A DNA stretch of 40,104 nt from Actinomycetota bacterium. Lineage in GTDB: Bacteria; Actinomycetota; Acidimicrobiia; Spongiisociales; UBA5794. How positions within the stretch are numbered: the first letter of the stretch is position 1; every line of letters begins with the position of its first letter. Positions 12,147-35,582 of this stretch are shown here, one piece after another. The stretch spans positions 1 through 40,104 of the forward strand of contig JBDLJV010000001.1 of the NCBI GenBank assembly GCA_039714175.1, given 5' to 3'. The notes under the pieces were generated by a model. That model ran no database searches, was not told the DNA's origin, and saw only the letters and a list, made by a program, of their open reading frames with translations. Both the position numbers and the translations under genes were made by a program.

Positions 12147-12160
12147 GCCAGAAGGATAGG

Positions 12161-12195: not shown

Positions 12196-12273
12196 ATGGA
12201 CGGCAAAGACGGAATCTTCCCAACTCTCAGCTCACGGCTCTCAGCGAAGAGGCATCTTCGGAGGTCGGGTTGT

Positions 12274-12301
12274 TCTACGTACTACGTACTACGTACTACG
12301 T
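12274..12301. repeat. Tandem heptanucleotide array (tctacgt + actacgt x3)
   Basis: Four in-phase 7-mers ending 8 nt before the CPBP ATG (12309). Confidence 0.9.
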
Positions 12302-12308
12302 TCGCCCC

Positions 12309-18174: not shown

Positions 18175-19079
18175 CAGTCCCTCCTATAGGGCTTCAAGTA
18201 CGCTCCCGGATACTCGACGTTCCGACCCGATATCGCCAACGCAGCGACGACAACCAGATACGGCATAGCGAGCAGGAGTTCGAACGGCACGGTGTCCCAA
18301 CCGGGAAGGATCCGGAGGCGCAGTTGCAGGGAGAAGACGCCTGCGAAGACGAGAGCCCCGACCACACCACGCCAGATCCGCCACCGTCCGAAGATCACGA
18401 GGGCGATCACAACCCACCCTCGTCCTGCGATGATGCCAAGGGTGAAGGTTCCAAGGGTTGCCAAGGTGATGAACGCGCCGCCAACAGCTGCGAGAGCGCT
18501 GCCGATCATCAACGCCATGTAGCGGTAGAAGGAAACGGACAAGCCAGCCGCATCCGCAGCCTCCGGATTCTCACCCACCGCCCGGGTTCCCAGCCCGAAT
18601 GACGTTGATCGCAGCACCCACCACCCGAGCGGGGCCACGACCAGGAAAGCGACGTAGGTCAACGCGTACTGACTGAAGACATTGTCCGGTCCAAACGGTT
18701 CCAGCAGTCGGTAGGACTCGATACGGCGCAGGCCTTGCGAGCTGCCGAAGTAGAGGCGATTGATGAACTCGGAGATCCCGATGAGACCCAGTGTCAGACC
18801 GATCCCTGCAACGTGTTGGCTTGTTCCGAGGGTCACACTGAAGAGGCCCATGATCGCTCCGGAAGCCACTCCCACAATGATGGCTGCGAGGATTCCAAGC
18901 TCAAGCGATCCGGTAACGGCTGCCGCCGCGAATCCGAAGAACGCACCTGCGTACATGGTCCCTTCAATCCCGAGATTGAGGATCCCGGCCTTTTCTGCAT
19001 ATGTCTCCCCGACCACCCCGAAGACAAGAGGGGTTGCGTTTCTCAGGGTTGCAGTCAGGACATCGAACAGGAAGATCAC
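18174..19079 (-). CDS. BMP-family (nucleoside/purine-pyrimidine) ABC importer permease 2
   Basis: 301 aa polytopic protein of the branched-chain/ribose-type permease family (YufQ/NupQ-like). Overlaps the upstream permease gene. Confidence 0.85.
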   Translation of the reverse strand: MIFLFDVLTATLRNATPLVFGVVGETYAEKAGILNLGIEGTMYAGAFFGFAAAAVTGSLELGILAAIIVGVASGAIMGLFSVTLGTSQHVAGIGLTLGLIGISEFINRLYFGSSQGLRRIESYRLLEPFGPDNVFSQYALTYVAFLVVAPLGWWVLRSTSFGLGTRAVGENPEAADAAGLSVSFYRYMALMIGSALAAVGGAFITLATLGTFTLGIIAGRGWVVIALVIFGRWRIWRGVVGALVFAGVFSLQLRLRILPGWDTVPFELLLAMPYLVVVAALAISGRNVEYPGAYLKPYRRD

Positions 19080-20167
19080 GATGTGTCCACCTCCACGACT
19101 TCTGCCAGGGCACCTTCTCCCGACGCATCATCAACCACAGGTTCCCGCACCTTGTGGTGGTACCTCCGGTAAGCCAGGACGCCGACGGTTACCAGGAGGA
19201 CCGTTGCCTCGATGACATCCCCCAGTTGCGACGGAACACCCAGGACACGACCGGCCGACCCAGCTCCAACATTGAGATCCGCAAGCAACAACGCCGCGAG
19301 CACAACCGTGGGCATCGCCAGGGCTCCGAGCGTCGCCACCACGATGCCCGTGTAGCCGAACCCTGCCGAGAGCCCGCTTGTGAGCCGGTACTGGATTCCG
19401 CTCACCTCGCTCGCTCCGGCAATCCCCGCAATGGCTCCACTCGTCAGAGCGACCGTTAGCAGCGTGCGTCCAACACTGATTCCGGCGAATCGAGCAGCGT
19501 TGGGCCCAGAGCCGACAGCACGTACCCGAAGACCCGCAACGGTTCGAGACAGCACGAACCACACCAGGGCCGCTATTGCCAACCCGATCAGGAAGCCGAG
19601 GTGGAGTCTCGATCTCGGGATCAGGATCGGAAACTGCGCTGACTCTGCGATCCGCTCGGACTCCGGGAAGCCAGTCTCGGGGTCTGCCCACGGTCCATTG
19701 AGAAGCGCCATCACAACCAGGAGTGCTACGGGATTCAGCAGCAGTGTTGTGACGACCTCATCGATTCCGAGTCTGACACGGAGCAGGGCGGGCACGAGTG
19801 CCCAGAGCGCTCCCGCCGCTGCGCCGGCAAGGACCACAGCGGGCAGAACGAGAAAGCGCGATTGATTTCCGGCAAGCATGCCGACTGCGGCACCGGCAAC
19901 AGCCCCCATGAGCAGTTGTCCCTCGGCACCGATGTTCCAGTACCCGGCGCGGAATGCCAACGCTACCGACACGCCGGTGAGAATCAACGGGATCGACGAG
20001 ACCAGTACTTCCTGAGCGGAGAATCGGGATGTCAGTGGTGATATGAGGAATTCGACATAGGCGGCGAATGGATTGGCGCCGGCCAACATGATGAACGGTG
20101 CCGTGATAACAAAGGTGCCCAATACGATGAGGCCTGCTGTCGTCGCTCCTCGTCTCCAATGTTCCAC
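19076..20167 (-). CDS. BMP-family ABC importer permease 1
   Basis: 363 aa polytopic, YufP/NupP-like. Confidence 0.85.
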   Translation of the reverse strand: MEHWRRGATTAGLIVLGTFVITAPFIMLAGANPFAAYVEFLISPLTSRFSAQEVLVSSIPLILTGVSVALAFRAGYWNIGAEGQLLMGAVAGAAVGMLAGNQSRFLVLPAVVLAGAAAGALWALVPALLRVRLGIDEVVTTLLLNPVALLVVMALLNGPWADPETGFPESERIAESAQFPILIPRSRLHLGFLIGLAIAALVWFVLSRTVAGLRVRAVGSGPNAARFAGISVGRTLLTVALTSGAIAGIAGASEVSGIQYRLTSGLSAGFGYTGIVVATLGALAMPTVVLAALLLADLNVGAGSAGRVLGVPSQLGDVIEATVLLVTVGVLAYRRYHHKVREPVVDDASGEGALAEVVEVDTS

Positions 20168-20168
20168 G

Positions 20169-21689
20169 TCACGCCACCTCCGTGTGCCCTGCCATCAACA
20201 GGCCCAGTTGATCGCGATCAGCCTCCGGTGCATTCACGCGGCCTGCGATCCGACCGTCGTAGAGGACGATCAACCGGTCCGACAGCTGAAGCAATTCATC
20301 GAGATCCTCGCTCATGAGAACGATTGCGGCCCCCTTCTGACGCATCGCCAGCAGCTCACTTCGCACATACGCCGTGGCCCCTATGTCAAGCCCACGTGTC
20401 GGTTGGGAAACCACGATCACACGCGGCTCTCGAACCAGTACACGAGCAAGCAGGACCTTCTGGATGTTTCCGCCCGAGAGCGTCTTCACGAGATCGTCGG
20501 GACCAGCTTTGATCGAGAATCTGTCGATCAGATCAAGTGCATTTGCCCGAATCCGATCGCGATCGAGAACGAATCCCTTTCCGACTTCCTCGAGATGCTC
20601 CAACATCAGGTTGTTGGCGACCGACATATCACCAACCAACGCCTCGTGGCGATCCTCCGGAATCCGACCGACTCCCGCAGCGACAACCTGGTTCGGATTC
20701 CTGCCAGCGATCTCAGCCCCGTTCGCCATGATGGATCCGGCAGTCGGTTTCCGCATCCCCGACAGCACCTCGGCGAGCTCGGTTTGACCATTGCCTGAGA
20801 CACCGGCCACCCCGAGAATCTCGCCAGAGGCGACATCGAAGTCGACACCGGAAAGCGCTGGAAGGCCGAGTCGGCCATTCGCCGACAGGTCTGAGACCTC
20901 AAGTACCTTTTCTCCAGACTCGACTCCGAGTCGAGGTTGCAGTGCTTCGGCAGGGCGCCCCACCATCCACGACGCCAATCCTGCAGCATCGACCTCATCG
21001 GTCTCGGTTGTGTGAACGACCTTCCCGTGACGAAGAACCGTTACCCGATCCGTCAACTCCATCACCTCAGGAAGCTTGTGGCTGATGAAGACGATGGCCA
21101 TACCGCTGGCCCGAAGTTTGTCGAGCGTTGCGAACAGGGTCCTGATCTCCTGCGGAGTGAGCACCGCTGTCGGTTCGTCAAGGATGAGAACGCGACAATC
21201 CCTATAGAGCGCCTTGAGAATCTCCACGCGTTGCTGCTCGCCCACTGAGAGGTCCACGAGACGGCGATCGGGATCCACATCGATTCCGAAACGCTCAGAA
21301 GCGTTCTCCACGAGAGACTTCGCTCGCGCTGGGTCAAGTATCCGTCCACCAGTTCGACCGAGGATGATGTTCTCGGTGACGGTCATCGGCTTCACGAGAG
21401 CGAAGTGCTGTGTCACCATCCCGATTCCGGCGTCTATGGCACCCTTCGGTGACGCTATGTTCGCTGGGGCACCATCGACATGGATCTCTCCCTCATCGGG
21501 AGCCGAGAGACCGTAGAGAATGCGCATCAAGGTTGTCTTCCCGGCACCATTCTCGCCGAGAACACCGTGAACCTCTCCACCCCACAGCGACAGGTTGACA
21601 CCGTCGTTTGCCAGCACGTCTCCGAAACGTTTGCTGATCGACCTCAGTTCGACAACTGGAGTCGTCAAGGAGTCACCTGTCGCTGTCAT
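20169..21689 (-). CDS. ABC importer ATPase with duplicated ATP-binding cassettes
   Basis: 506 aa. Walker A GENGAGKTT, signature LSVGEQQRVEI, and a second cassette GVSGNGQTE / LSGGNIQKV, as in sugar/nucleoside CUT2 ATPases. Confidence 0.92.
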   Translation of the reverse strand: MTATGDSLTTPVVELRSISKRFGDVLANDGVNLSLWGGEVHGVLGENGAGKTTLMRILYGLSAPDEGEIHVDGAPANIASPKGAIDAGIGMVTQHFALVKPMTVTENIILGRTGGRILDPARAKSLVENASERFGIDVDPDRRLVDLSVGEQQRVEILKALYRDCRVLILDEPTAVLTPQEIRTLFATLDKLRASGMAIVFISHKLPEVMELTDRVTVLRHGKVVHTTETDEVDAAGLASWMVGRPAEALQPRLGVESGEKVLEVSDLSANGRLGLPALSGVDFDVASGEILGVAGVSGNGQTELAEVLSGMRKPTAGSIMANGAEIAGRNPNQVVAAGVGRIPEDRHEALVGDMSVANNLMLEHLEEVGKGFVLDRDRIRANALDLIDRFSIKAGPDDLVKTLSGGNIQKVLLARVLVREPRVIVVSQPTRGLDIGATAYVRSELLAMRQKGAAIVLMSEDLDELLQLSDRLIVLYDGRIAGRVNAPEADRDQLGLLMAGHTEVA

Positions 21690-21698
21690 TCGTCGAGA

Positions 21699-22736
21699 TC
21701 AGCCGCCGATTGATCCAGCGGGTTCTTCCTCGTTGATGTTCACCCGGAAGACACCACTCCTGATGTCTGCCTCTGTGGCCTCCACCATGTCGATGAGTGC
21801 TTGATCCACTCCTCCGGTCACGGACGTGTTGATCGGAGCCAGCGAGGCGCCTCCCTTGGCAAGCATGCTGAAGTCCTTGAGATCTTGTGCCGTATAGGCG
21901 CCAGCGGCTACCTGATCAATGACATAGGCCACTGTCGGCGCCATGTCCCAGACCACACTCGACACGACGCTCTCCGGAGCAAGCTCCTGCTGATCCGACA
22001 TGTTGCCGAATGAGAACGCGCCCTTCTCCTGGGCTGCCTCGATCACACCGAACCGTTCGGCGTAGAGCACATCCGCGCCTGCATCGATCTGGGCGAGAGC
22101 TGCTTCTTTGGCTGCTGCCGGATCAAACCAACTGTTGATGAACGTGACCTTCACTTCGACACTCTCGTTCGTCGACTGAGCACCAGCGACGAACGCGTTC
22201 GTGATGCGGTTGACCTCAGGAACCGGATGGCCCCCGACCACGCCAACGACGCCAGAAGTGGTGAGTCCGCCGGCGAGCATGCCAGCGAGATAGGCCGGCT
22301 CATGAATCCAGTTGTCAAACACTGAGAAGTTCGGATCTGCCGGTCCGCCGCCTGATCCGAAGACGAACGCTATGTCCGGGTATGCAGCAGCGACCCGCCG
22401 AACCGCATCCTCGTTCCCAAATGCATCACCGAAGATGATGTCGGGCTTGTCTTGCTCGGACACCTCGGTGAGGATCCGTTCCATGTCGCCCGAGTAGCCG
22501 ATGTCATCCGTGAACTCGTAGGTGATGTTCCCTGCTTCTTCCTCGGCAAGCAACGCGCGGTGGATGACCCCGTCCCACGGTTCTTCGATCTGGGTGGCGA
22601 AGGCGCCGAAGACAGAGATCGTTTCGCCGTCGGCCGCTTCCTCACCGGAATCACTGCTGCACGCAGCCGCAGCGAGTGTGGTGATCACCACCAGCAATAC
22701 CAAGAAGACTTTCGAACGGTAGGGCATCCTGCTCAT
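21699..22736 (-). CDS. BMP-family (Med/PnrA-like) substrate-binding lipoprotein
   Basis: 345 aa from the ATG at 22736, preceded by GAGGAGG. Lipobox LAAAAC. BMP-like core (GGHPVPEVNRITNAFVAGAQS...). N-terminal extension in the track ORF trimmed. Confidence 0.85.
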   Translation of the reverse strand: MSRMPYRSKVFLVLLVVITTLAAAACSSDSGEEAADGETISVFGAFATQIEEPWDGVIHRALLAEEEAGNITYEFTDDIGYSGDMERILTEVSEQDKPDIIFGDAFGNEDAVRRVAAAYPDIAFVFGSGGGPADPNFSVFDNWIHEPAYLAGMLAGGLTTSGVVGVVGGHPVPEVNRITNAFVAGAQSTNESVEVKVTFINSWFDPAAAKEAALAQIDAGADVLYAERFGVIEAAQEKGAFSFGNMSDQQELAPESVVSSVVWDMAPTVAYVIDQVAAGAYTAQDLKDFSMLAKGGASLAPINTSVTGGVDQALIDMVEATEADIRSGVFRVNINEEEPAGSIGG

Positions 22737-22850
22737 CGGCTCCTCCTCATGATCGGGATGGCTACGCGTCGCGGCGTTCTTCATCCACCCCGTTCCCGGC
22801 ATCGTACAAGAATCGGTGTGGCGATATCTATCAAAACCGACCGGGTTACG

Positions 22851-22867
22851 TAGTCAGATTCTGACTA
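22851..22867. promoter_or_regulatory. AT-rich palindrome TAGTCAG-att-CTGACTA upstream of the BMP transporter operon
   Basis: Exact 7-bp arms about 115-130 nt upstream (minus sense) of the 22736 start. Candidate operator. Confidence 0.35.
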
Positions 22868-22960
22868 GGAGCGGCCGGTCGGATCATCGTGTGGTCTCTC
22901 CCGACGAGCCCGTGGTTGAACTCGCTGAGGATCGCGCGACGGCTTCCTCAAGTGTGTGAT

Positions 22961-22988
22961 GCTGAAACCTGAAACCTGAAACCTCAAC
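22961..22988. repeat. Tandem heptanucleotide array (gctgaaa cctgaaa cctgaaa cctcaac)
   Basis: Four in-phase 7-mers, 12 nt upstream of copy 3 of the 36-nt repeat. Confidence 0.85.
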
Positions 22989-22999
22989 TCCCTCTGCAT

Positions 23000-23035
23000 C
23001 CCCCTCCTGGCTCGCAAGCTCGCCCGTCCTCCCAC
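23000..23035 (+). repeat. 36-nt dispersed repeat, copy 3
   Basis: 35/36 identical to 733-768 (CGCCCGT versus CGCCTGT). Followed by a 6-bp hairpin GTCCTC-n9-GAGGAC, as in copy 2. Confidence 0.9.
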
Positions 23036-23127
23036 AAGGCGAGGACCGTTGGAAAGATGCCTCACCTCGTGGATTGAGGGTGAATGGGGAACTCGGAAGC
23101 GGAAGTGGGAACCGGTAGCCCAAAGCA

Positions 23128-23154
23128 AGAGGGGCCGGCGATGCCGGCCCCTCT
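23128..23154 (-). terminator. Intrinsic-terminator-like hairpin after the uracil permease gene
   Basis: 12-bp GC-rich stem AGAGGGGCCGGC-gat-GCCGGCCCCTCT, 17 nt past the stop (23171). Followed on the minus strand by UGCUUUGGG, a short U-run. Confidence 0.5.
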
Positions 23155-23170
23155 CAGCGTCTGTTGATTG

Positions 23171-24406
23171 CTACTCGACGTCCGGAGCCATTGCGAATTC
23201 GTCCTCTTCTGCCGGTTCCGGCAGAATCAGATTGACGATCACGCCAACGACGGCGGCAAGTGCGAGACCCGAGATCGGCACATCACCGATGGCAAGGGTA
23301 TTGGTAAGACCGCTGACACCAAGACCGAACACGAGGATCAGTCCAACAACGATCATGTTGCGACTCTTCATGAAGTCGACCTGTGCGTTCACCAGTGTCC
23401 TCAAACCGACCGCTGCGATCATTCCGAAGAGAACGATCGACAGTCCGCCAAGTACTGGAACCGGTGTGGTCCTCAGGATGGCGGCCAGTTTCGGAATCAG
23501 GGCAAGCACGATTGCGAAACCCGCACCGATTCGGAGGATGAGCGGGTCGTACACCTTCGTGACGGCCAGCACGCCCGTGTTCTCCGAATACGTCGTGTTC
23601 GGTGGGCCACCGATCAGACCGGCGAACAGCGTCGCGATACCGTCGCCGAGGAGCGTTCGCTCCAGGCCGGGCTCCTCGAAGAAGTCCTTTCCGACAACAC
23701 TGCCGTTGGCCATGATGTCACCGACATGCTCGATCATGGTCACGAACGCGATCGGTGCGATGAGAGCAACCGGTGCCCATGAGATGTCTCCAAAGCCCCA
23801 TGTGAACTCGGGAAGACCGACCCACGCTGCCTCACCGACAGCAGCGAAGCTGAAGTCAGGGAAGAAGATTGCTCCGAGGATGTAGCCGACGACCGCTGCA
23901 GTGAGGATCGGCAGCATCCGGAACAAGCCTTTGAAGAACACCGCCGCAATGACCGCGGTCAGCATCGTGACGAGCGCCAACCACCAGGCACCCTCTGACA
24001 TATTGATGGCGATCGGCGCCAGCGTGATTCCGATGACGATGATGACCGGTCCGGTCACGATCGGCGGGAAAACTCGCTGGATCACTTCGTGACCGACTGC
24101 CGCCACAAGGAGGCTCATCGCGGTGTAGAGGACACCGGCGGCCATGATCCCGAGTCCGATTGCTGCCCACGTGTAGTCACGTTCGGTGGCGAGGATGATC
24201 GCTGGGATGAACGCAAATGACGAACCCAGGAATACCGGCACCATCCGCTTGGTCACAAGGTGGAACAGCAACGTACCAACTCCGGCGGCAAGCAATGCCA
24301 CCGACGGATTGAGTCCTGTCAACAACGGCACAAGGACCGTTGCTCCGAACATGGCCACGACGTGCTGCAAGCCCAGCACCGTCTTCTTTTGCATCGTCAT
24401 TTCCAT
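23171..24406 (-). CDS. NCS2-family uracil/xanthine permease (UraA/PyrP-like)
   Basis: 411 aa from MEMTMQKK, with SD GGAGAGG 8 nt upstream. N-terminal LGLQHVVAMFGATVLVPLLTG is the canonical NCS2 motif. Confidence 0.88.
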   Translation of the reverse strand: MEMTMQKKTVLGLQHVVAMFGATVLVPLLTGLNPSVALLAAGVGTLLFHLVTKRMVPVFLGSSFAFIPAIILATERDYTWAAIGLGIMAAGVLYTAMSLLVAAVGHEVIQRVFPPIVTGPVIIVIGITLAPIAINMSEGAWWLALVTMLTAVIAAVFFKGLFRMLPILTAAVVGYILGAIFFPDFSFAAVGEAAWVGLPEFTWGFGDISWAPVALIAPIAFVTMIEHVGDIMANGSVVGKDFFEEPGLERTLLGDGIATLFAGLIGGPPNTTYSENTGVLAVTKVYDPLILRIGAGFAIVLALIPKLAAILRTTPVPVLGGLSIVLFGMIAAVGLRTLVNAQVDFMKSRNMIVVGLILVFGLGVSGLTNTLAIGDVPISGLALAAVVGVIVNLILPEPAEEDEFAMAPDVE

Positions 24407-24623
24407 AGGGTTTTCCTCTCCCAATCGCGAAGAGAGCCACCCCAATCGAGGTGACTCCCTTTCCTATATGTCGAGCTTGTTGCCCGTACCTGACCCGTAC
24501 CGCTTCCGGTGGCGAAAACTGTCGCGGGCTTGTCATTGATTGATGGTGCAGCAAATAAGCAGCCACCCCCCCTTGTTGCGCTGCCCAGTCTTCGCTGGCT
24601 GCCATCAAGGTATGACAATTAGA

Positions 24624-24971
24624 TCATGCTCCTCTGAACACCATCCCGTAGTAGTTGTCGTACGTCTCTTCACGCACGATCTCGACGCTTCCTTTCACGG
24701 CCATGCCGGCCTTCGGTTCGTCGATGTCGAGTTGCCCCAACATCCGCATCCCGTTCTCCAGCTCGACAATACCAAGTCCGAGCGTCGGAACCTCGTACTG
24801 CGGCGGCAGGTTGTAGACCCGTGTGTAGGTCAACAGCTTGCCGTCCCGCGGAAGCGGAACCGTGTCGAACTCGAAGAAGTCGTTCTGCTTGCAGTTCTTG
24901 CACACCATCCGGAACGGGTAGTGCTCCGTGTCGCACAGGCGGCACTTGTAGGCGTAGATTTCCCGAGCCAT
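24624..24971 (-). CDS. DUF35 OB-fold / zinc-ribbon protein (thiolase-partner family)
   Basis: 115 aa. Cys4 ribbon CRLCDTEHYPFRMVCKNCK followed by an OB-fold-like C-terminus. Its start overlaps the thiolase-like stop (TGATG). Confidence 0.8.
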   Translation of the reverse strand: MAREIYAYKCRLCDTEHYPFRMVCKNCKQNDFFEFDTVPLPRDGKLLTYTRVYNLPPQYEVPTLGLGIVELENGMRMLGQLDIDEPKAGMAVKGSVEIVREETYDNYYGMVFRGA

Positions 24972-26146
24972 CAGGCCTCCTTCTCGAACACGAGACAAAC
25001 AACGTTGTTACCGAAGCCGCCGAAGTTGCAAGTGAATCCAACCTCTGCGTCCTCGACCTGGCGAGCTTCGCCGTCTCCACGCAGCTGGGTCACGATCTCC
25101 CATGCCTGCGCGATACCGGTCGCTCCGACCGGGTGACCGCGGCCCTTGAGACCTCCACCGACATTGATGGGGATCTTGCCACCGAGCGCTGTCTCGCCCT
25201 TCTCGAGAGCGATGTGTCCTTCGCCCTTGGGGAAGAACCCGACCTCTTCGCTCTCGACGATCTCGAGGATCGTGAACGCATCGTGGAGCTCGGCAACGTC
25301 GACGTCTTCTGGCGTCTTGCCCGCCATTGCGAACGCATCGGCTGCAGCCTTGCGAACCGCGAGAAGATCCGTCGGTTCCTCGCGTTCATGAACGGTATGG
25401 GTGTCAGTTGCCTGACCAACGCCGCTCAACTTGATCATCGGTCCACCGAGCTCCTTCGCCTTCTCTTCAGAAACGAGAATGATGGCTGCGCCACCGTCGG
25501 AGACCGGACAAGCATCGAAGAACCGCAGTGGCTCTGCGACGTACGGGTTGTTGGTCATCGCCTCAGGGGAATCAAGGATGCCCTCGAGGGATATCTCTTG
25601 CTGGAGATGTGCCCATTCGTTGTTGAGCGCAGCGTTCTGGTTCTTGACTCCAACCATCGCAAGGTGACGCTCGGTAACCCCGTACTTGTCCATGTAGAGA
25701 CGGGTGAACATCGCAGCGTGCGCCGGAAGTGTCACTCCGTAGATGTACTCGGCGATCGGATGGGTCAGCGTCGCGACGAAATCGGTCGCTTCGAGGCCGT
25801 TGACCTCGCGCATCCGCTCCACACCGGCCACAAGAACGACATCGTCCATTCCGGAAGCAACGGCCTGGTACCCAGCCTTGATCGCAGAGCCGCCAGAAGC
25901 CGGTCCATTCTCGATGGCCGCGGCACCAGCGGGAGTGAGGCTCAGGCTGTCCGCGACGGCACTCGCGAGTGCCGTCTGGTGATTGACCCTGGGGCTTCCC
26001 ATGTTGGCCACATAGACCTGGTCAACCTCTGTAATCCCTGCATCCTTGAGCGCCATCATTGACGCATAGGACGCGATCTCGGACAGCGCGAATTCCAACC
26101 GGGTGAAGGTCGTGATGCCAATACCGGCTACGTAGACGTCACGCAT
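24971..26146 (-). CDS. Thiolase-fold protein (SCP-x/archaeal type) apparently lacking the nucleophilic Cys
   Basis: 391 aa from MRDVYVAGIG. C-terminal thiolase motifs are present (ELHDAFT, GRGHPVGATG, CNFGGFG). The expected [E]xxCASGG nucleophile site reads ENGPASGG, and there is no Cys in the first ~230 aa. Confidence 0.8.
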   Translation of the reverse strand: MRDVYVAGIGITTFTRLEFALSEIASYASMMALKDAGITEVDQVYVANMGSPRVNHQTALASAVADSLSLTPAGAAAIENGPASGGSAIKAGYQAVASGMDDVVLVAGVERMREVNGLEATDFVATLTHPIAEYIYGVTLPAHAAMFTRLYMDKYGVTERHLAMVGVKNQNAALNNEWAHLQQEISLEGILDSPEAMTNNPYVAEPLRFFDACPVSDGGAAIILVSEEKAKELGGPMIKLSGVGQATDTHTVHEREEPTDLLAVRKAAADAFAMAGKTPEDVDVAELHDAFTILEIVESEEVGFFPKGEGHIALEKGETALGGKIPINVGGGLKGRGHPVGATGIAQAWEIVTQLRGDGEARQVEDAEVGFTCNFGGFGNNVVCLVFEKEA

Positions 26147-26897
26147 CCTGCAACCCCTCCTCCATCGCCCAACGCTGCACCATGAGAGCGGATGCGGTCG
26201 GGTCATACTGCGAGCGGGTCGCGGATAGCGGGTCAAGGGCAGGCGTCGGCGGATCCGACGGCGGAAGGATCGCTTCCATGGCCTTGTCGAGAATCTCCGG
26301 TGGAACCGGTCTCCGACCAACGACGAGGCTGGACCTCGCGGCGTCGAACAGCTCACGAGTCAACGCCCATGAGGGGACACCGCCGAGCTCGTGGGGAATC
26401 TCGAATCGCTTCTCGAGTTTGTACTCGATCATCCACCGGCGGAATCCGATCGGTGACTCGGCGACAATCAGGACCTCGTCATGACCGAGCACATCGAAGT
26501 GGTACTCCATCTTCGCCGCGAAGGCATGAGCGCCGATGCGCAGGCCGCGGCGCAGGGCCAGGGTGTGCAACGACAAGCCCAGGTTCGGAGTCACCTGGCG
26601 ACCATTGACAATGGCTGCCAGCTCTCCATCGACCTGCACGGCAAGGACGTACTGGTCCTGGAAACGGTACTGATAGTGAGACAGCAGCTCCGCGTAGACA
26701 CGCGATGCGACGACGTCGTAGTAGTCACGCTCCACGTGTAGCAGCGGCTCGACGTGCTTCAGCAGATCCGGGATCTCATCCCGGTCGACGGCACGAACCA
26801 CGGCTGCCTCACCGCTGGCGAGCAGCATGTACTTCGGTTCGTACGGCGCCATCTCCGAATCGATGGGCCGAAGAATCTTTTCTAGATCAACGGACAT
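26139..26897 (-). CDS. Hypothetical protein, operon-embedded (weak GNAT-like segment)
   Basis: 252 aa with coding-like composition. Starts 2 nt after the CoxL-like stop and has an 8-nt overlap with the thiolase-like start. Only a weak LRRGLRIGAHAF motif-A-like stretch; no family recognised. Confidence 0.65.
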   Translation of the reverse strand: MSVDLEKILRPIDSEMAPYEPKYMLLASGEAAVVRAVDRDEIPDLLKHVEPLLHVERDYYDVVASRVYAELLSHYQYRFQDQYVLAVQVDGELAAIVNGRQVTPNLGLSLHTLALRRGLRIGAHAFAAKMEYHFDVLGHDEVLIVAESPIGFRRWMIEYKLEKRFEIPHELGGVPSWALTRELFDAARSSLVVGRRPVPPEILDKAMEAILPPSDPPTPALDPLSATRSQYDPTASALMVQRWAMEEGLQDA

Positions 26898-26899
26898 TC

Positions 26900-29296
26900 T
26901 CAGTTCGCTCCTTCTGTTGTCTTGGATTTCTCAAGGATCGCCATCGCGACCTTCTCCTGTGTGATCGGCATCGACTTGATGCGGACCCCTAGTGCGTTGT
27001 AAACGGCGTTGGCAATCACCGGTGCAGCTCCGATCATCGTGTGCTCACCCACGCCCCTGGCTCCGAACGGGCCATCGGGCTGTGGCACCTCGACGATGAT
27101 CGGGATGATCTCGTCGGGGATGTCGAAGGCCGTCGGGATCTTGTAGTCGGTGAACGTCGGGTTCATCATCTTCCCGTTCTCGTCGAAGCGCATGTCTTCG
27201 TACAGAACGGTTGCAAGACCCTGGACGAGGCCGCCGGTGATCTGACCGTTCACGAGGTCCGGGTTGATGGCCCGGCCGGCGTCGACGGCCAGCGCTGCCT
27301 TGCGCACCCAGATACGACCTGTGTCCGTGTCGATCTCAAGAACAACACCAGTTGCCCCAACCGTGTAATGCACGTTGGGATGGCCTCCCTGGCCGGTCTC
27401 CGGATCGCTGATCGCGTTCGTGAACTCGGGCATGAACTTGCCGCTGGCAATGATTGGCCCACCGCGCCAGGTTCCTTCCTCGGTCTGGATGCCGTCGATG
27501 ACGAATTCACGCAACGGCTTCGAGAAACTGGCATCGGTTCGACACTTGACTGCTTCGTCCTCGAGGTACAACGAATCATCCTCGAAGCCGTACACCTCGT
27601 GAATGACGTCGAAGATCTTGCCTCTCGCCTCGATGGCTGCCTTCTCGACCGCCAGTCCCGAACTCCATGTGACGTGGCTGGCAACGGTCTGCCATTCGTA
27701 GGGGTTCCGGTCGGTGTCCGGTGTCTCCACCCGGATCTTGTTCACGGGGACGGTGAGGATCTCGCTCGCGATCTGCGCCATGACGGTGAGGTATCCCTGA
27801 CCGAGCTCCATGCCGGACACGGTGATGTTGATGCTGCCGTCCTCGTTGAACTTGAGGAACGAGGCCGATGAGGCGTTCGGCGGCATCGCCGGCGCCTTCC
27901 AGAACAGGGCAAGACCCTTGCCGATCACGGTGTTCGGGTTGTCGGAGGTTTCCTCGACACCCCAGTCGATGGCCGCAGCGGTCTTGTCGATCGCCTCGAT
28001 CATGCCGGACGGATTCATGTGAGCTCCATAGGCGAGCTCGTCACCCTCAACGATCGCGTTCTTGCGTCGGAAATCGACCGGGTCCATCCCGATTGCCTCG
28101 GCGATTCGATCCATGTGTGACTCAAGCCCGAAATGGAATTCGGAGTACCCGAAGCCACGGTACGGACCACCCGGGGGGAGATTCGTGTAGATGCACAGCG
28201 AGTCATTGGTGATGTTGGGCACACGGTACGGGCCGGTGGCCGACAGGCCAGCGGCGTTGACGACGTTGGCGCCGTACTCGACATATGCCCCGGCATCCCA
28301 GTAGAGCTTGTGCTCAACGGCCGTTAGTGTGCCGTCGTTCATGACACCGACCTTGAGCTCGGCGACGACGCCCTGGCGCTGATAGGTGTTGTAGAACTCC
28401 TGCTCCCTGGTCCAGCGCAGCTTGACCGGCCGGCCCTTCACGAGCGTCGCCATGGCAGCACCGAGGATCTCCATGGAGACACCGGCTTTCCCGCCGAATC
28501 CACCGCCGACGTACGGCGTGATCACGCGAACGTCCTTGTGGGTGAAGCCCAGAGGTGCGAGCGCTTCGGCAAACAGGTGGCGCTGCGTATGCGGTGATTG
28601 GGATGCAGTCCAGACCGTGAGCCGATCTGACTGATCGAGTCGGCTGACCGTCACGTGCGGTTCGATGGCGCAGTGCGCGTAGCGCGGCACGTGGTAGGTG
28701 TCTTCGAGCACGTAGTCGGCCTCGGCGAAGGCCTTCTCAGTGTCGCCCTTCCGGATCTTCCTCCAGTGGGCGATGTTCGTGTCGTCCTGTGGGAAGAACC
28801 AGGGGACATGGACATACTCATCGAGGTCGGGATGGACCAGTTCGGCACCGTCGGCGACTGCACTCCTCGGGTCGAGAAGCGGCTCCAGGACCTCGTACTC
28901 GACCTCAATGAGCTTGGCTGCGTGCACAGCGTCGCGATGGCTCCTCGCGATGACACCAGCCACTTGCTCGCCCACGAAACGGACGTGGTTCTGAGCGAAG
29001 ATGTAGCGATCCTCCATGTACATGCCGAACTTGTATGGGAAGTCCGCGCCGGTGGCAACCCGCACAACGCCCGCTGCCGCCTCGGCCTTGGACGTGTCGA
29101 TGGAGACGATCTTCGCGTAGGCGTGAGGGCTCTCGACGATGGCAGCGTGCAGCAACCCGGGCCCAAAATCGATATCGTCGACGAATTGCGCGGCACCGCT
29201 GATCTTGTCGAGACCGTCGATCCTGACGGCCGGCTTGCCGACTGTCTTGAGATCGTCGGTGCTCTTTTCGACCTCGAAGGGATACTCGGTCGTCAT
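26900..29296 (-). CDS. XDH/aldehyde-oxidase-family molybdopterin-binding large subunit (CoxL-like); candidate uracil/thymine dehydrogenase
   Basis: 798 aa from MTTEYPF. VGGGFGGK motif and GVGE catalytic-Glu context (ARGVGEHTMIGAAPVIANAVYNALG). ATGA overlap with the FeS subunit gene. The substrate assignment is inference from context. Confidence 0.88.
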   Translation of the reverse strand: MTTEYPFEVEKSTDDLKTVGKPAVRIDGLDKISGAAQFVDDIDFGPGLLHAAIVESPHAYAKIVSIDTSKAEAAAGVVRVATGADFPYKFGMYMEDRYIFAQNHVRFVGEQVAGVIARSHRDAVHAAKLIEVEYEVLEPLLDPRSAVADGAELVHPDLDEYVHVPWFFPQDDTNIAHWRKIRKGDTEKAFAEADYVLEDTYHVPRYAHCAIEPHVTVSRLDQSDRLTVWTASQSPHTQRHLFAEALAPLGFTHKDVRVITPYVGGGFGGKAGVSMEILGAAMATLVKGRPVKLRWTREQEFYNTYQRQGVVAELKVGVMNDGTLTAVEHKLYWDAGAYVEYGANVVNAAGLSATGPYRVPNITNDSLCIYTNLPPGGPYRGFGYSEFHFGLESHMDRIAEAIGMDPVDFRRKNAIVEGDELAYGAHMNPSGMIEAIDKTAAAIDWGVEETSDNPNTVIGKGLALFWKAPAMPPNASSASFLKFNEDGSINITVSGMELGQGYLTVMAQIASEILTVPVNKIRVETPDTDRNPYEWQTVASHVTWSSGLAVEKAAIEARGKIFDVIHEVYGFEDDSLYLEDEAVKCRTDASFSKPLREFVIDGIQTEEGTWRGGPIIASGKFMPEFTNAISDPETGQGGHPNVHYTVGATGVVLEIDTDTGRIWVRKAALAVDAGRAINPDLVNGQITGGLVQGLATVLYEDMRFDENGKMMNPTFTDYKIPTAFDIPDEIIPIIVEVPQPDGPFGARGVGEHTMIGAAPVIANAVYNALGVRIKSMPITQEKVAMAILEKSKTTEGAN

Positions 29297-29760
29297 TCGG
29301 AACCCTCCTTGCCAGCCGCAAGCACGGCATCGATGATCGGCTCGTACCCGGTGCAGCGGCAGAGATTGCCTGCAAGCGCTTCCTGTACGTCGTGGCGAGT
29401 CGGATCGGGGTTGTTCTCCAGCAACTCGGTGGCAGACAGGACGATGCCCGGGGCACAGAACCCGCATTGGAACGAGTTGTTCTCGATGAACAGGTTCTGG
29501 AGTTCGCTGAGGCCCTCGTAGCTGATGCCTTCCACCGTGGTCACCTCGCGACCATCAGCTTCCACGGCGAGCACGAGACAACTGCGCACGGAGCGGCCGT
29601 CGAGGACGACAGTGCACGAACCACAGTCGCCACGCTCGCACCCGATCTTCGGACTCTTCGTTCCGATCCGCTCCCTGAGCACGTCGAGCAACGTGTCCGC
29701 CGGGGCAACGTCGAGGCCCCAGTCTTCACCATTGACTTTGATGTTGAGATTCATCGTCAT
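29293..29760 (-). CDS. (2Fe-2S)-binding small subunit of XDH-family dehydrogenase (CoxS-like)
   Basis: About 155 aa. Plant-type cluster CERGDCGSCTV and a second cluster QCGFCAPG...CRCTGY. Start is 29760 or 29754. Confidence 0.9.
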   Translation of the reverse strand: MTMNLNIKVNGEDWGLDVAPADTLLDVLRERIGTKSPKIGCERGDCGSCTVVLDGRSVRSCLVLAVEADGREVTTVEGISYEGLSELQNLFIENNSFQCGFCAPGIVLSATELLENNPDPTRHDVQEALAGNLCRCTGYEPIIDAVLAAGKEGSE

Positions 29761-29764
29761 CCTC

Positions 29765-30649
29765 TCAGACAAGCCGTGTGCCGTAGTCGGGACCCTTGCC
29801 GGCAAGTCTCTCGGTCGCTGCTACCAATCCGCGCCCCAGCATCACTTCGGTCATGTGGTTGCGATACTCCGCTGACGCTCGCATATCGGTGATCGGACTG
29901 ATCTCGTCACGGACCATCGCTACAGCCTCGGCGATGAGGTCACCGTCGAGCGACTTGCCTCGGAGAGTGTCCTCGATGCGAGCGGAACGGATCGGTGTGG
30001 GGGCGACGGCACCGAAAGCAATGCGGTACTCGTTGTCCGGGTAGGCAAGTATGCCCACCGAAGCCTGGGCCAGGTCTTCGCCTCCGTAGCGCATGAGCTT
30101 GACATAGACCCCGCCGTGTGAGCCGAGGTCGATGGTGAGATGCGAAACGATCTCGTCCTCCGACAAAGCGGTCTCGCGCAGGCCCACGAACCAGTCCTTG
30201 ATATCGACGCTGCGGGCACCGTCGGGTCCGATGAGATGCACCACTGTGTCATAGACGAGCAGCACAGGTCCGGCATCACATGAAGGGACTGCCGAGCAGA
30301 TGTTGCCGACCACAGTTGCCCGGTTCCTGATTCCACCGGAGGCCACAGTGTCGGCCATCTCTGCCAGAAGCGGGGCATGTTCGTTGACGATCTCGGATTC
30401 GATGATGTCGGTGAACGTCACCAGTGAACCGATGTGAAGGGTGTCACCATCCATCGTGAGATCGTTGAGCCCCGGCACATTCTTGATATCGACAACAAGA
30501 TCCGGGGCGATGGCATCGTCGCGCATCCACGCCACGAGATCGGTGCCACCAGCAAGGATCTGCGCGGAACCGGTGTGGTCCGAGAGGATCCCGATGGCCT
30601 CCTCCAGCGTGTCGGGACGCTGATACTCGAAGTTACGGGCGATCACCAT
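29765..30649 (-). CDS. FAD-binding medium subunit of XDH-family dehydrogenase (CoxM-like)
   Basis: 294 aa. N-terminal FEYQRP...ILAGGTDL FAD-binding PCMH motif. SD GGAGG upstream. Confidence 0.9.
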   Translation of the reverse strand: MVIARNFEYQRPDTLEEAIGILSDHTGSAQILAGGTDLVAWMRDDAIAPDLVVDIKNVPGLNDLTMDGDTLHIGSLVTFTDIIESEIVNEHAPLLAEMADTVASGGIRNRATVVGNICSAVPSCDAGPVLLVYDTVVHLIGPDGARSVDIKDWFVGLRETALSEDEIVSHLTIDLGSHGGVYVKLMRYGGEDLAQASVGILAYPDNEYRIAFGAVAPTPIRSARIEDTLRGKSLDGDLIAEAVAMVRDEISPITDMRASAEYRNHMTEVMLGRGLVAATERLAGKGPDYGTRLV

Positions 30650-30746: not shown

Positions 30747-32153
30747 TCATTGCAGCGTCTCCGCCAGCGCATTGACTCCATCCACGAAACACTCCATGGG
30801 TGCCTCGACCAGACCCGCGCCGACCATGCCGGTGCCCGGGACCTTGCCGGCAACACCGGTGTTGATCTGCGGCCGAACGCCGGCCCGCACGACCCTTGTG
30901 GCATCGATACCAACCGGTGTCCCACGGAACTCGAGCATCGGGATCTGATAGGCCGGGTGCTCGGCCATCGTGATCTCGTACATTGCGAGCGTCCTGGTCA
31001 CGGCTCCAGCGGCCGTTCCACCGACGAACCCCACAATTGCGGGTGCTGCAGCCATTGCGAGGCCTCCAAGACCAACCGTCTCGGTGATCGTCGAGTCTCC
31101 TATGTCCGGACTGGCGTCATCTTCGGTGAAGGATCCGAGGTAGAGACCGTCAACCGGCGGGGCAGGGGCGATGAACCAGCGATCCCCCGTTCCGGAGAGC
31201 CGGACTCCGAAGTCGGTACCGTTGCGGGCCATCACCGTGACGAGGCTCGACCCGGCCACTCCGGACGCGGCATCGGATCCAAGCTTGCCAGAGGCCATGA
31301 CAAGGTTGAGCATGAAGTGGTCGTTGCCATCGATGAAGTCGTACACGGCCCGGCGTTGGCCGAGCGGTGCGTCGGCTCCATCGATGAGTGCTCCGCTGAT
31401 CTCGCGAAGGAAGAGCGATGTCACCGCTCGGTTTCGGTTGTGTCCGTCATCGCCCATCTGAAGCGCCTGGGCGATCAACGACTGGAGATCTATCGGTCCG
31501 GTGCTCTTGAGGGTGGCTGCGAGCACCGGACCGAGAACCTCATCCATCCAATGGAGCCGATCGATAGCTTCGGGAGCGAAGGCGCCATATCGAAGCACCT
31601 TCCCGAGTCCTTCGTTCAATGTTGAGTAGGACACGCCGTCTCCGGCGGCGTCCTTGACGACCGCAATCGGCATCGACGGCGATGTCACCCCAGCCATCGG
31701 GCCGACGGCGCCGTGATGGTGGCAAGGGGATAGGTCGATGAGGCCGTCTGCGGCCTTCGCCGCGGCGTCGTCGGGATCATCTGCAAGTCCCTCGTAGAGC
31801 ATCGCCCCGATGATCGCTCCCCTCATCGGGCCGCTTGCCCGTTCCCACGTCAATGGCGGACCGGCGTGGAGGAAGGTCCGCTCCGTCATTGAGGGGAACA
31901 CGTCACGGGCCACGCTGACATCAACGAGCTGTGGCCGCACGGCCAGCATGCGCTTGATCGCGACCTCGTTCGCATCCCGCATTCGGTCATCTGCGAACAA
32001 GATTGCGAGAGCGTCTTCGCTTCCGGCGGCTGGTGGACGCCAGTCGGCTCGCTCGACAGCGGAGCCCTGTTGCTCGATCGACGTGGCAAGCATGTCGGTA
32101 CCTGCGGTCGCGACCACCGGTTCCGTGTCGAGCAGTTGTCCGAGATCGCTCAT
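30747..32153 (-). CDS. DUF1116 protein (YlbE/AllG-like)
   Basis: 468 aa from MSDLGQ. ATGA overlap with the FdrA-like stop. SPCHHHGAVGPMAG segment and its position next to FdrA and DUF2877 match the ylbE family. Confidence 0.75.
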   Translation of the reverse strand: MSDLGQLLDTEPVVATAGTDMLATSIEQQGSAVERADWRPPAAGSEDALAILFADDRMRDANEVAIKRMLAVRPQLVDVSVARDVFPSMTERTFLHAGPPLTWERASGPMRGAIIGAMLYEGLADDPDDAAAKAADGLIDLSPCHHHGAVGPMAGVTSPSMPIAVVKDAAGDGVSYSTLNEGLGKVLRYGAFAPEAIDRLHWMDEVLGPVLAATLKSTGPIDLQSLIAQALQMGDDGHNRNRAVTSLFLREISGALIDGADAPLGQRRAVYDFIDGNDHFMLNLVMASGKLGSDAASGVAGSSLVTVMARNGTDFGVRLSGTGDRWFIAPAPPVDGLYLGSFTEDDASPDIGDSTITETVGLGGLAMAAAPAIVGFVGGTAAGAVTRTLAMYEITMAEHPAYQIPMLEFRGTPVGIDATRVVRAGVRPQINTGVAGKVPGTGMVGAGLVEAPMECFVDGVNALAETLQ

Positions 32154-33580
32154 GATGAAGTCCTTGTCGTTGCCAGGCGTGCTGCGTACAAGGCAGCCTC
32201 CGCGTTGGACAGGTGCACAGATGCACCAGCGTCGTTGAGGGCCTTTGCCTGGGTGTCGCGTCCCTGCGGATCTCCGCTCGTCCCACACAGTGAAACGACG
32301 ACGGCCACTCCGGAGTCGACAACGCGCTCGACGATGGGGGCGAGTTCGGCAGCCGGATTGGCATTGGCGCCATAGCCGAGGACAACGTCCATGAGGACCA
32401 CGCCGACCGATTCGTCGTGGGCGACGGCTGCGAGTCGCTCGACCCGCACGGTCTGGTCGATCATCGGATGGGCTCTTCCCTGCGTGTATTCATCATCGCC
32501 GTAGTCGATGAAGGTGTGTCCCTCGTCTTCCTCGCGGGTTCCGATCTCGCCGAGCTGCGGACCAGCCACATGACGCGCTTCGGAACGCAGCGTGCCGCCG
32601 GAGAACAGTCCACGGACGAATCCGGAACGGTGCTCCTGTTGGGGGGCTTCCCATGAACCGTACGTCGGCCTGGCCTGACCGAGAGCATCCAGCACCTCGC
32701 CTGCGCCTTCCTCGAGCGTGGTCTCCCCCATGAATGTGATCACGACAGGTGTGGCGCACTCTGCGGCGACGCGGCGCACCTGGTCTGCAACCGGTGCGGC
32801 CGGAGGCTTCGAGATGACAACAATCAGCTCGGTTCCCGGATCAGCGTCGAGCGCTTCGAGTGCTTGGAGCGTCGAGATGGCCCCAACGTCTTCGGAGAGA
32901 TCATGGCTTCCCGTGCCGAGCGCATGTCGAACACCAACGCCGGCGTCATCGAGCAACGCGCACATCTCCTGTATGCCGGTACCTGATGCGCCCACCATGC
33001 TCACCGGACCTGGCTGCACTGCATTGGCAAATCCGAGACCGATGCCGCTCACGATCGTCGTGCCGCAATCGGGGCCCATCACGAGGAGATTGTGTTGCGC
33101 GCCGTATCGCTTGAGTGCGACTTCCTGGGAAATGGGGACGTTGTCGCTGAAGATCATCACATGGAGACCATCCTGGAGTGCCTCCATGGCTTCGACATAG
33201 GCGTGCTCCCCGGGAACCGACAGCAGAGCGACGTTGGCGCCGTTGATCTCGGCTGCAGTGCCCACAGTCTTCGCATCGGGTGCGTTCATCCCGCCCGAGC
33301 GGACCATCTTCGGGGTGAGCGCTTCTTCGAGAACCGCATGCGCATGAGCGATTGCCTCTTCGTTCTCGGCATGGACAGCGAGCAGCAGGTCGTTGGGTCC
33401 AACGCCGACGACAGAATCCATGTCGAAGTCCATGTCGGCAAGCAGGCTGAGATTGAGCTCAGTGGCCATCGCCACCAGAGCGTCGGTGACGCCTTCAACA
33501 CCTTGGAGTGCCTTGCTTGCTTGCATCAGCCGAACCGAATCGTGATAGCGGCCGGGGTGTACCTCAACTCGCGAGATCAT
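32150..33580 (-). CDS. FdrA-family protein (AllF-like; succinyl-CoA-synthetase-alpha/CoA-ligase fold)
   Basis: 476 aa. N-terminus MISRVEVHPGRYHDSVRLMQASK parallels the E. coli FdrA N-terminus. Rossmann/CoA-binding-like repeats. ATGA overlap with the DUF2877 stop. Confidence 0.8.
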   Translation of the reverse strand: MISRVEVHPGRYHDSVRLMQASKALQGVEGVTDALVAMATELNLSLLADMDFDMDSVVGVGPNDLLLAVHAENEEAIAHAHAVLEEALTPKMVRSGGMNAPDAKTVGTAAEINGANVALLSVPGEHAYVEAMEALQDGLHVMIFSDNVPISQEVALKRYGAQHNLLVMGPDCGTTIVSGIGLGFANAVQPGPVSMVGASGTGIQEMCALLDDAGVGVRHALGTGSHDLSEDVGAISTLQALEALDADPGTELIVVISKPPAAPVADQVRRVAAECATPVVITFMGETTLEEGAGEVLDALGQARPTYGSWEAPQQEHRSGFVRGLFSGGTLRSEARHVAGPQLGEIGTREEDEGHTFIDYGDDEYTQGRAHPMIDQTVRVERLAAVAHDESVGVVLMDVVLGYGANANPAAELAPIVERVVDSGVAVVVSLCGTSGDPQGRDTQAKALNDAGASVHLSNAEAALYAARLATTRTSS

Positions 33581-35529: not shown

Positions 35530-35582
35530 GGTCCTGCCTCCTACTGTCCGGATGGAATCGAGAATATCCCAATCGAACCTCG
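35530..35582. promoter_or_regulatory. 53-bp divergent control region (amidohydrolase operon / pucR-like gene) carrying CCCAATCGA and GGAATCGA motifs
   Basis: CCCAATCGA at 35568-35576 and AATCGA at 35556-35561. The same 9-mer recurs in the uracil permease 5' UTR (24441-24449; variant at 24420-24428). Confidence 0.4.

Follow-up and report, generated by a model that had tools for sequence, protein, structure and literature searches.

The window (the whole stretch of DNA analyzed here) is a 40104-bp NCBI contig from a metagenome-assembled genome (MAG) of an uncultured Actinomycetota, with closest relatives among Acidimicrobiia/Actinomycetota MAGs at 95–97% identity. Its minus strand encodes a 391-aa thiolase-fold protein without catalytic cysteines that we call ThlL (24971–26146; assigned by Pfam, Protein Data Bank (PDB) alignments and an AlphaFold2 (AF2) model). 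ThlL is flanked upstream by a 252-aa GNAT-like protein that has no family assignment (26139–26897, minus strand; AF2 model and Foldseek) and downstream by a 115-aa DUF35 protein with a Cys4 zinc ribbon and an OB fold (24624–24971, minus strand; Pfam OB_ChsH2_C). Judged from their sequences, these three genes, the trio hereafter, are translationally coupled and are co-inherited with a nucleobase-oxidizing gene cluster.

ThlL matches the Pfams Thiolase_N (84.6 bits, E 9e-24) and Thiolase_C_1 (148.1 bits, E 2e-43), both above the cut-offs, and its public record (MEN8039891.1) names it 'acetyl-CoA acetyltransferase'. It carries the motifs ELHDAFT, GHPVGATG and CNFGG, which a preliminary description of this DNA had correctly read as thiolase hallmarks. 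The same description had claimed that the nucleophilic Cys is missing, and this holds: HMMER alignments pair 'iengPASGG' of ThlL with 'ieaaCASGG' of the P. furiosus thiolase 7yvy and with 'veaaCASGS' of the M. thermolithotrophicus (Methanothermococcus) thiolase 6esq, so that the nucleophile position is taken by Pro82. The segment E79-N80-G81-P82-A83-S84-G85 shows zero variation in the 121 homologues (76–92% identity) used for residue conservation, and all 83 genomic loci described below encode both EN-GP-ASG and LHDAF. The second catalytic Cys is gone as well, HDAF (with its Ala invariant) replacing the HDCF of SCP2/archaeal-type thiolases. Cys373, in the CxG-type loop (CNFGG), is Leu in 30 of the 121 homologues and in 15 of the 48 loci that keep the full cluster in the window's own gene arrangement (arrangement A, below); this residue is therefore dispensable. 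GHPVGATG is kept in 120 of 121 homologues, the His of this motif and the His-Asp of HDAF are invariant, and ENGPASG, HDAF, GHPVGATG and NFGGFG are constant in ThlL from Acidimicrobiia to Verrucomicrobia and largely retained at 40–60% identity.

With Pro as its nucleophile residue, Ala in HDAF and a replaceable Cys373, ThlL is predicted to be unable to form an acyl-cysteine intermediate or to perform ordinary thiolysis, as the preliminary description had also proposed. We rejected ThlL as a competent thiolase or acetyl-CoA acetyltransferase, since it has neither the nucleophilic Cys nor a reliable acid/base Cys, and records that give proteins of this type the latter name are a systematic misannotation. 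Its scores fall below the NCBIfam cut-offs (at best 391.9 against 420 for PRK06064; 324 against 600 for AcCoTHIOL_METTL), and the BbsAB equivalogs fail too (BbsB 168.6 against 750; BbsA 37.8 against 250). An earlier statement that no Cys occurs in the N-terminal ~230 residues is true to about residue 212; Cys213 is present and invariant. As a replacement nucleophile this residue was rejected, because a Cys at or beside its site (DC[SC]P) is common in Cys-containing relatives too. Loss of the cysteines through sequencing error or pseudogene formation was rejected given the invariance across at least 200 sequences. We also note a clade-specific insertion, SPEAMTNN (residues 193–200, modeled with low confidence), just ahead of the FDACPVSDG loop; it is missing in 98–99% of the Cys-containing relatives and in eight of nine other Pro-type representatives.

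The best solved relatives of ThlL are all archaeal, namely 7yvy (272 bits), ST0096 (4yzo, 229 bits) and 6esq (203 bits); further away are BbsB (135 bits), Ltp2 (6ok1, 111 bits), PhlC (91 bits) and TbSLP (49 bits). Our structure models are single AF2 chains, compared by Foldseek. That of ThlL has a mean predicted local distance difference test score (pLDDT) of 76 and a predicted template modeling score (pTM) of 0.85, and matches 7yvy with a template modeling (TM) score of 0.87–0.92. Foldseek ordered the relatives as the sequence search did, with Sal last among the 50 matches listed, and active-site loops of this monomer model (112–139, 197–203, 211–216 and 332–340) have low pLDDT. ThlL has thousands of metagenomic relatives. 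When 1.8 billion cluster representatives were searched exhaustively, the ThlL clade proved tight and isolated, with one representative at 60% identity and the other full-length ones at 50% or less. The nucleophile Cys is absent in 46 of the 130 closest full-length representatives (17 Ser, 10 Pro, 8 Asp, others). Five Ser-type Cys-less relatives (P0260, P0295, P0339, P0341 and P0357) are about 500–540 aa long, and the extension at their C-terminus is possibly a fused DUF35; in that case they would be natural fusions and would support a physical association of ThlL-type and DUF35 proteins. At L084 (7563–9015) and L089 (4590–6034), Pro-type Cys-less thiolase-like genes (40–41% identity) stand beside genes for 94–102-aa zinc-ribbon/OB proteins, on contigs with methanogen-type (DUF1890/DUF1894) or haloarchaeal-type (HTH_10/BAT) markers.

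The DUF35 protein, publicly named 'OB-fold domain-containing protein', scores 33.5 bits against OB_ChsH2_C (cut-off 27.1), and its ribbon, C10-x2-C13...C24-x2-C27, is retained in 75 of 76 orthologues. Its best start, ATG 24971, has one base in common with the ThlL stop (TGATG) and AAGGAGG close upstream, an arrangement that points to pairing of the two genes by translational coupling. The overlapping stop and start, like the Cys4 ribbon, had been described correctly before.

What the preliminary description overlooked, in presenting a two-protein pair, is a third and always adjacent partner. The stop of the GNAT-like gene runs 8 nt into the ThlL start (ATGCGTGA), and in every locus with enough upstream flank, in at least four phyla, this gene adjoins that of ThlL. 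The 252-aa protein gave no sequence match in Pfam, NCBIfam or PDB. Nothing meaningful emerged either when 35 members were compared with Pfam at E values up to 5, and there was no HMG-CoA synthase (HMGS)/KAS III match. A large protein collection holds 3064 homologues (the best-scoring 120 at 71–97% identity), and wherever a source gives one of them a name it is 'hypothetical protein'; the present cluster provides a context for this family of roughly 3000. The AF2 model (overall pLDDT 64.6) is confident for residues ~20–145, and Foldseek matched it to dozens of GNAT acyl-CoA N-acyltransferases (E 6.5e-5 to 7e-4; TM 0.45–0.6 on the target). We take the predicted GNAT-like fold, spanning residues ~1–165, as a lead only. 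Invariant in the family are RRGLRIGAHAF (from R116) and Tyr159. By eye the former resembles the CoA pyrophosphate-binding loop of GNAT proteins, with RGLRIG presumably a partial fit to Q/RxxGxG/A, and Tyr159 stands at what we take to be the site of the frequent GNAT general acid.

The linkage of the trio to nucleobase catabolism was followed in related genomes. One genome per species was scanned, which gave 124 relatives; the best 80 loci were kept, and window proteins were placed on 83 loci for gene order. The kept loci come from MAGs only (Acidimicrobiia/Actinomycetota, Eisenbacteria, Verrucomicrobia, Acidobacteriota/Terriglobia, and others). Of the 83, 77 have the three trio genes side by side in the same order; in the remaining six a member is missing, mostly at a contig end. 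The trio is always accompanied by an XDH-type dehydrogenase, an AllFGH-type enzyme or both, AllH being the minimum, together with a ring hydrolase, and the link to XDH-type and/or AllFGH genes extends over Acidimicrobiia, Eisenbacteria, Verrucomicrobia and Acidobacteriota. With a barbiturase orthologue as the ring-opening enzyme, this bears out the earlier assignment of the pair to a pyrimidine cluster. In comparisons between phyla ThlL ranks first in conservation within the module, with a mean identity of 75.9%, followed by the XDH molybdopterin subunit (70.8%), the GNAT-like protein (70.5%), the XDH [2Fe-2S] subunit (64%) and DUF35 (63%); lowest are the XDH FAD subunit (55%), AllG (50%) and AllF (39%).

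Within the window, the gene order on the minus strand from 35628 to 24624 is barbiturase, AllH, AllF, AllG, the FAD, [2Fe-2S] and molybdopterin subunits of the XDH-type enzyme, GNAT-like, ThlL and DUF35. From barbiturase through DUF35 the start and stop codons overlap or nearly abut, with Shine-Dalgarno-like sequences within the preceding genes. The barbiturase orthologue (34432–35628; true start probably ~35529) belongs to the AtzD/TrzD family and scores 525 bits (E 9.5e-157) to the solved barbiturase 5hwe, whereas no cyanuric acid hydrolase exceeds 317 bits; on this contrast we rejected a cyanuric acid hydrolase identity. It does pass the NCBIfam cyanuric-acid-amidohydrolase equivalog (452 against 360 bits), and automatic annotation would probably misname it accordingly. 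Next come an AllH-like subunit (DUF2877; 33577–34425; Pfam AllH 78.6 bits; 32% identity to E. coli YlbF/AllH), an AllF/FdrA-like subunit (32150–33580; 39% identity to E. coli FdrA/AllF; 405 bits against NCBIfam PRK06091, under its cut-off of 433) and an AllG-like subunit (DUF1116; 30747–32153; Pfam AllG 296.6 bits; 44% identity to E. coli YlbE/AllG). The XDH-family subunits were identified by family matches and lie at 29765–30649 (FAD-binding), 29293–29760 ([2Fe-2S]; Fer2_2 and Fer2) and 26900–29296 (molybdopterin), the last with a likely start at ATG 29296 that overlaps the stop of the [2Fe-2S] gene. Among the cluster ORFs (open reading frames) scanned we found no ureidomalonase-like amidase, and among the window ORFs scanned no allantoin-pathway gene.

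The E. coli AllFGH enzyme is an oxamic transcarbamylase that forms carbamoyl phosphate and oxamate from oxalurate and phosphate; when purified it needs Mg2+ only and works without CoA (PMC11326118). Because AllH and AllG flank the FdrA homologue, because its identity to E. coli AllF is 39% and because the E. coli enzyme is CoA-free, a place in a transcarbamylase is more likely for it than the role of a CoA ligase. These facts speak against the earlier suggestion that FdrA supplies CoA activation, although a CoA-dependent role is not strictly excluded by them.

The ThlL/DUF35 pair had also been placed at the end of its operon, which is not clearly the case: an NCS2-family uracil-type permease (23171–24445; family match and conserved adjacency) follows on this strand 178 nt beyond the DUF35 gene, with no terminator-like site in the gap, and in more than 30 Acidimicrobiia-type loci a uracil permease adjoins the trio. 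A promoter and terminator scan of 22800–27000 gave only intragenic terminator-like matches and no promoter, and so neither joins the permease to the operon nor splits it off. Further along the minus strand (17725–22802) are a nucleoside-type ABC transporter (a Bmp/PnrA binding protein, an ATPase and two permeases) and a cytidine deaminase. On the other side of the cluster a PucR-family regulator is encoded divergently (35466–37184, plus strand), its ORF probably starting later than listed. The listed PucR (GTG 35466) and barbiturase (ATG 35628) ORFs overlap head-to-head by ~160 nt, and comparison with homologues suggests that both real starts lie inside the listed ORFs, with a short divergent promoter region then left between them. 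Elsewhere the plus strand of the window carries unrelated genes: a cobalamin-dependent methionine synthase (MetH, 843–4298), an ECF-type sigma factor followed by an Ogt-like methyltransferase-domain protein (7050–8170) and a long acyl-CoA dehydrogenase (37273–39042).

Five gene arrangements were distinguished across the loci. Arrangement A, the Acidimicrobiia type found in the window, reads barbiturase-AllH-AllF-AllG-XDH-trio, often followed by the uracil permease; partial forms are AllHFG-trio-permease and XDH-trio-permease. Arrangement B, found in other phyla, reads trio-AllH-AllF-AllG-PF04199 cyclase-family hydrolase-XDH (three subunits), with the DUF35 gene overlapping AllH; it looks like a self-contained 10-gene unit, as its flanks are unrelated. 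Arrangement C reads XDH-nucleoside ABC-cyclase-trio-DJ-1/PfpI, and its trio proteins have 56, 59 and 40% identity to those of the window. In arrangements B and C the PF04199 cyclase-family protein occupies the barbiturase slot (L001 15349–16167, L064 15501–16319, L086 8392–9273) and is a candidate for a non-homologous barbiturate ring-opening hydrolase; members of this family include kynurenine formamidase and isatin hydrolase. At L086, which has the most divergent trio, a DJ-1/PfpI-family protein (11568–12170) is encoded after DUF35 and an amidohydrolase ahead of the XDH gene, so that a hydrolytic reaction may here take the place of the phosphorolytic one. Just upstream of the trio in the Eisenbacteria locus L001 (8447–9037) lies a LOG/PpnN-type nucleotide nucleosidase (PF03641), which is consistent with a supply of free nucleobase. 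Three Verrucomicrobia loci (L065, L081 and L083, ~9249–12900 each) hold the trio and AllH only, followed by unrelated genes, which may reflect a particular connection of the trio with AllH or else decay of the cluster; at L081 an ISL3 transposase lies directly upstream of the trio.

From this material we lean, only a little past an even chance, toward reading ThlL, DUF35 and the GNAT-like protein as three subunits of one module in an undescribed variant of the oxidative pyrimidine pathway. Its broader core, an integral non-thiolytic module of the pyrimidine cluster that acts on a ring-opened fragment, we regard as quite likely. In the proposed pathway, the XDH-type enzyme would hydroxylate uracil to barbiturate, and barbiturase would open the ring to give ureidomalonate. 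The AllFGH homologue would then use phosphate to split ureidomalonate into carbamoyl phosphate and malonamate. Ureidomalonate exceeds oxalurate by a single CH2, and it is suggested as the substrate of the AllFGH-type enzyme because the AllH-AllF-AllG set, at 32–44% identity to its E. coli counterparts, adjoins barbiturase. The trio would dispose of the malonyl C3 fragment, since in arrangement B only the trio remains for that task.

How the trio might do so is more speculative. The GNAT-like subunit would move malonyl from nitrogen to CoA, and ThlL would decarboxylate the resulting malonyl-CoA to acetyl-CoA with no covalent intermediate, thereby pulling the unfavorable transfer; the enolate would be stabilized by His288 (HDAF) and His338 (GHPVGATG), as in Cys-to-Gln ketosynthases. 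DUF35 would scaffold the subunits as it does in other thiolase complexes (archaeal thiolase/HMG-CoA synthase, PhlABC, Sulfolobus fatty-acid synthase and SmaATase), and the pathway would close on central metabolites. A CoA-thioester step is chemically sensible because GNAT and thiolase folds both bind acyl-CoAs, and because Cys-less thiolase-fold/ketosynthase sites with a two-His/Asn oxyanion hole decarboxylate malonyl thioesters, as the Cys-to-Gln variants of ketosynthases do. CoA-thioester C-C chemistry on the malonyl moiety is thus plausible; this specific transfer-plus-decarboxylation mechanism is a tentative proposal that we would sooner expect to be revised than upheld. Similarly possible, though we would not count on it, is that the trio and the AllFGH homologue together form an energy-conserving oxidative uracil pathway, which would yield carbamoyl phosphate, a potential source of ATP, and turn the malonyl unit into acetyl-CoA by a new kind of enzyme, in which DUF35 would scaffold a GNAT-like N-to-S acyl transferase and a cysteine-free thiolase-fold decarboxylase.

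A number of observations weigh against this interpretation. The substrates assigned to the XDH-type enzyme (uracil) and to AllFGH (ureidomalonate) derive from gene context only, and a carbamate kinase gene is absent among the window ORFs scanned, in contrast to the allFGHK operon of E. coli. The GNAT call combines a medium-confidence model (pLDDT 64.6) with weak Foldseek scores, and had no Pfam GNAT match at an E value of 5. Amide-to-CoA acyl transfer is uphill unless coupled to another step. Arrangement C has no AllFGH within 10 kb and the three Verrucomicrobia loci hold only trio and AllH, so that genomics does not fix the order of the steps. Distant Pro-type relatives (40–48% identity, on archaeal-looking contigs) stand next to small zinc-ribbon/OB genes but are accompanied by no pyrimidine genes and no 252-aa partner, and on this ground the ancestral function of the Pro-type thiolase-like/zinc-ribbon pair is presumably something other than pyrimidine breakdown; for the Pro-type relatives P0243 and P0248 the contigs were too short to be informative. 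Finally, Cys-less TbSLP decarboxylates malonyl-CoA very slowly, with a kcat of 0.005 s-1, a value cited in PMC12329534.

The main rival takes ThlL for a catalytically dead scaffold or CoA-binding pseudoenzyme, with the chemistry left to the GNAT-like subunit or to AllFGH, for which the ThlL/DUF35 core would only provide the organization. All three thiolase cysteines are indeed absent or dispensable, there is a precedent in PhlA, the inactive subunit without Cys and Glu in the DUF35 complex PhlABC, and the active-site loops of the monomer model have low pLDDT; a close association with AllH, through the overlap with DUF35 in arrangement B and at the three loci that pair the trio with AllH only, would also suit a scaffold. 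The former active-site loops (ENGPASG, HDAF, GHPVGATG and NFGGFG) are nonetheless invariant across phyla, and the conservation of ThlL exceeds the usual constraint on a pure scaffold, although ligand binding could explain this. We consider a dead ThlL unlikely, yet an explanation to be reckoned with. At the other end stands the view that the module is unrelated to pyrimidines and is a chance neighbor or part of general acyl-CoA metabolism. The public name acetyl-CoA acetyltransferase and the acyl-CoA dehydrogenase elsewhere in the window could be cited for it, but the linkage to XDH and/or AllFGH genes is held through several gene orders in at least four phyla, the trio overlaps in start and stop codons with the XDH-adjacent gene, and ThlL has no nucleophile for acetyl-CoA acetyltransferase activity; we give this view almost no credence.

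Two further rivals borrow their chemistry from known DUF35 systems. Ltp2 and Sal, which depend on a DUF35 partner, cleave C-C bonds of CoA thioesters with no acyl-enzyme stage and use for catalysis the Tyr of YDHF/YDCY at the HDCF position plus a second Tyr or Cys (PMC12329534). A retro-aldol or retro-Claisen lyase of the Ltp2-ChsH2/Sal-Shy type, acting on a CoA thioester of the opened ring, was the analogy that the preliminary description had drawn, and Ltp2 and Sal, likewise Cys-less thiolase folds with an obligatory DUF35 partner, are among the structural matches of ThlL (TM ~0.8). The analogy fails at the active site, where HDAF offers His in place of the catalytic Tyr and Ala in place of the catalytic Cys of Sal, and Ltp2 and Sal fall far below the archaeal thiolases and ST0096, the closest solved relatives, in sequence and structure searches. 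Moreover, barbiturate is expected to give no beta-hydroxyacyl intermediate, and there is no MaoC hydratase partner, the DUF35 protein being free-standing; such a lyase is improbable. In the other case the trio would be a Friedel-Crafts-type C-acyl transferase or deacylase, like PhlABC/SmaATase, working at the acidic C5 of barbiturate or of 5-substituted barbiturates. Barbiturate is a cyclic 1,3-dicarbonyl, tripartite thiolase/DUF35/third-subunit complexes acylate phenolic or cyclic 1,3-dicarbonyl carbons such as those of phloroglucinol and pyrrolidine-2,4-dione, and PhlC and MucABC are among the structural matches of ThlL. Against this, the thiolase Cys (Cys88 of PhlC) is needed as the acetyl carrier and is Pro in ThlL, the known third subunit is HMG-CoA-synthase/KAS III-like rather than GNAT-like, and C-acylation would serve no obvious purpose in a catabolic operon, all of which makes it very improbable.

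In the searchable literature, which covers few subscription-journal papers and whose silence is not proof of absence, we found no description of the module, of the cluster or of an AllFGH-linked barbiturate pathway, nor of AllFGH with a pyrimidine-derived substrate; a preprint on uric acid in which the oxidative pyrimidine pathway is mentioned proved not relevant. The oxidative pyrimidine pathway is far less studied than the reductive and Rut routes, its later steps and its distribution are poorly defined, and one paper calls barbiturase rare and little studied. The present analysis provides a short-list of substrates for the Cys-less thiolase/DUF35 pair (malonamate, ureidomalonate and malonyl-CoA) and adds a candidate to the enzymes known to be brought to thiolase cores by DUF35. 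If our proposals are true, the module would represent a new non-covalent catalytic mode for the thiolase superfamily, and AllFGH would have its first pyrimidine-derived substrate.

A Cys-less thiolase-fold protein with a DUF35 partner is a known kind. The ThlL system is set apart from it by the Pro/HDAF/two-His signature with SPEAMTNN, the third subunit, the metabolic context and the association with an AllFGH-type enzyme. The archaeal thiolases (PFC_04095/7yvy; 6esq/6et9 of M. thermolithotrophicus) have the same gene pairing with a Cys4 zinc-ribbon/OB DUF35. They keep the nucleophilic Cys, however (Cys85 in 6esq, which also has the HDCF Cys), where ThlL has Pro and HDAF; their DUF35 recruits HMG-CoA synthase as third enzyme, where the partner in the window is GNAT-like; and their context is mevalonate or fatty-acid synthesis rather than nucleobase catabolism. 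ST0096 of Sulfolobus tokodaii (TM 0.81–0.91) is a solved Cys-less relative, but with Ser at the nucleophile position (DNTSGSGG) and HDMA instead of Pro and HDAF; we found no described function for it in the searchable literature. Ltp2-ChsH2 and Sal-Shy resemble ThlL in joining a Cys-less thiolase-superfamily protein to DUF35, which there is a domain of a MaoC hydratase in steroid catabolism, whereas in the window it is a free-standing 115-aa protein with XDH, AllFGH and barbiturase neighbors. PhlABC and SmaATase (MucABC) share with the trio a tripartite make-up of thiolase fold, DUF35 and third subunit, include one inert subunit and act on carbon acids of the cyclic 1,3-dicarbonyl type. The trio differs from them in that they use the thiolase Cys as acyl carrier, have an HMGS/KAS III-like third subunit and are biosynthetic.

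At the level of the pathway, the window shares with the classical oxidative route (uracil dehydrogenase, barbiturase, ureidomalonase) the barbiturase, a three-subunit XDH-type dehydrogenase and a uracil-type permease. With the E. coli oxamate transcarbamylase AllFGH it shares all three subunits, encoded together, while the adjacent carbamate kinase of E. coli has no counterpart among the window ORFs scanned. In place of the ureidomalonase of the classical route, the cluster holds the AllFGH homologue and the trio; a phosphorolytic AllFGH-type enzyme and a three-protein module appear to replace the hydrolytic ureidomalonase. The cluster points to a variant of the pathway that is self-contained and widely distributed.

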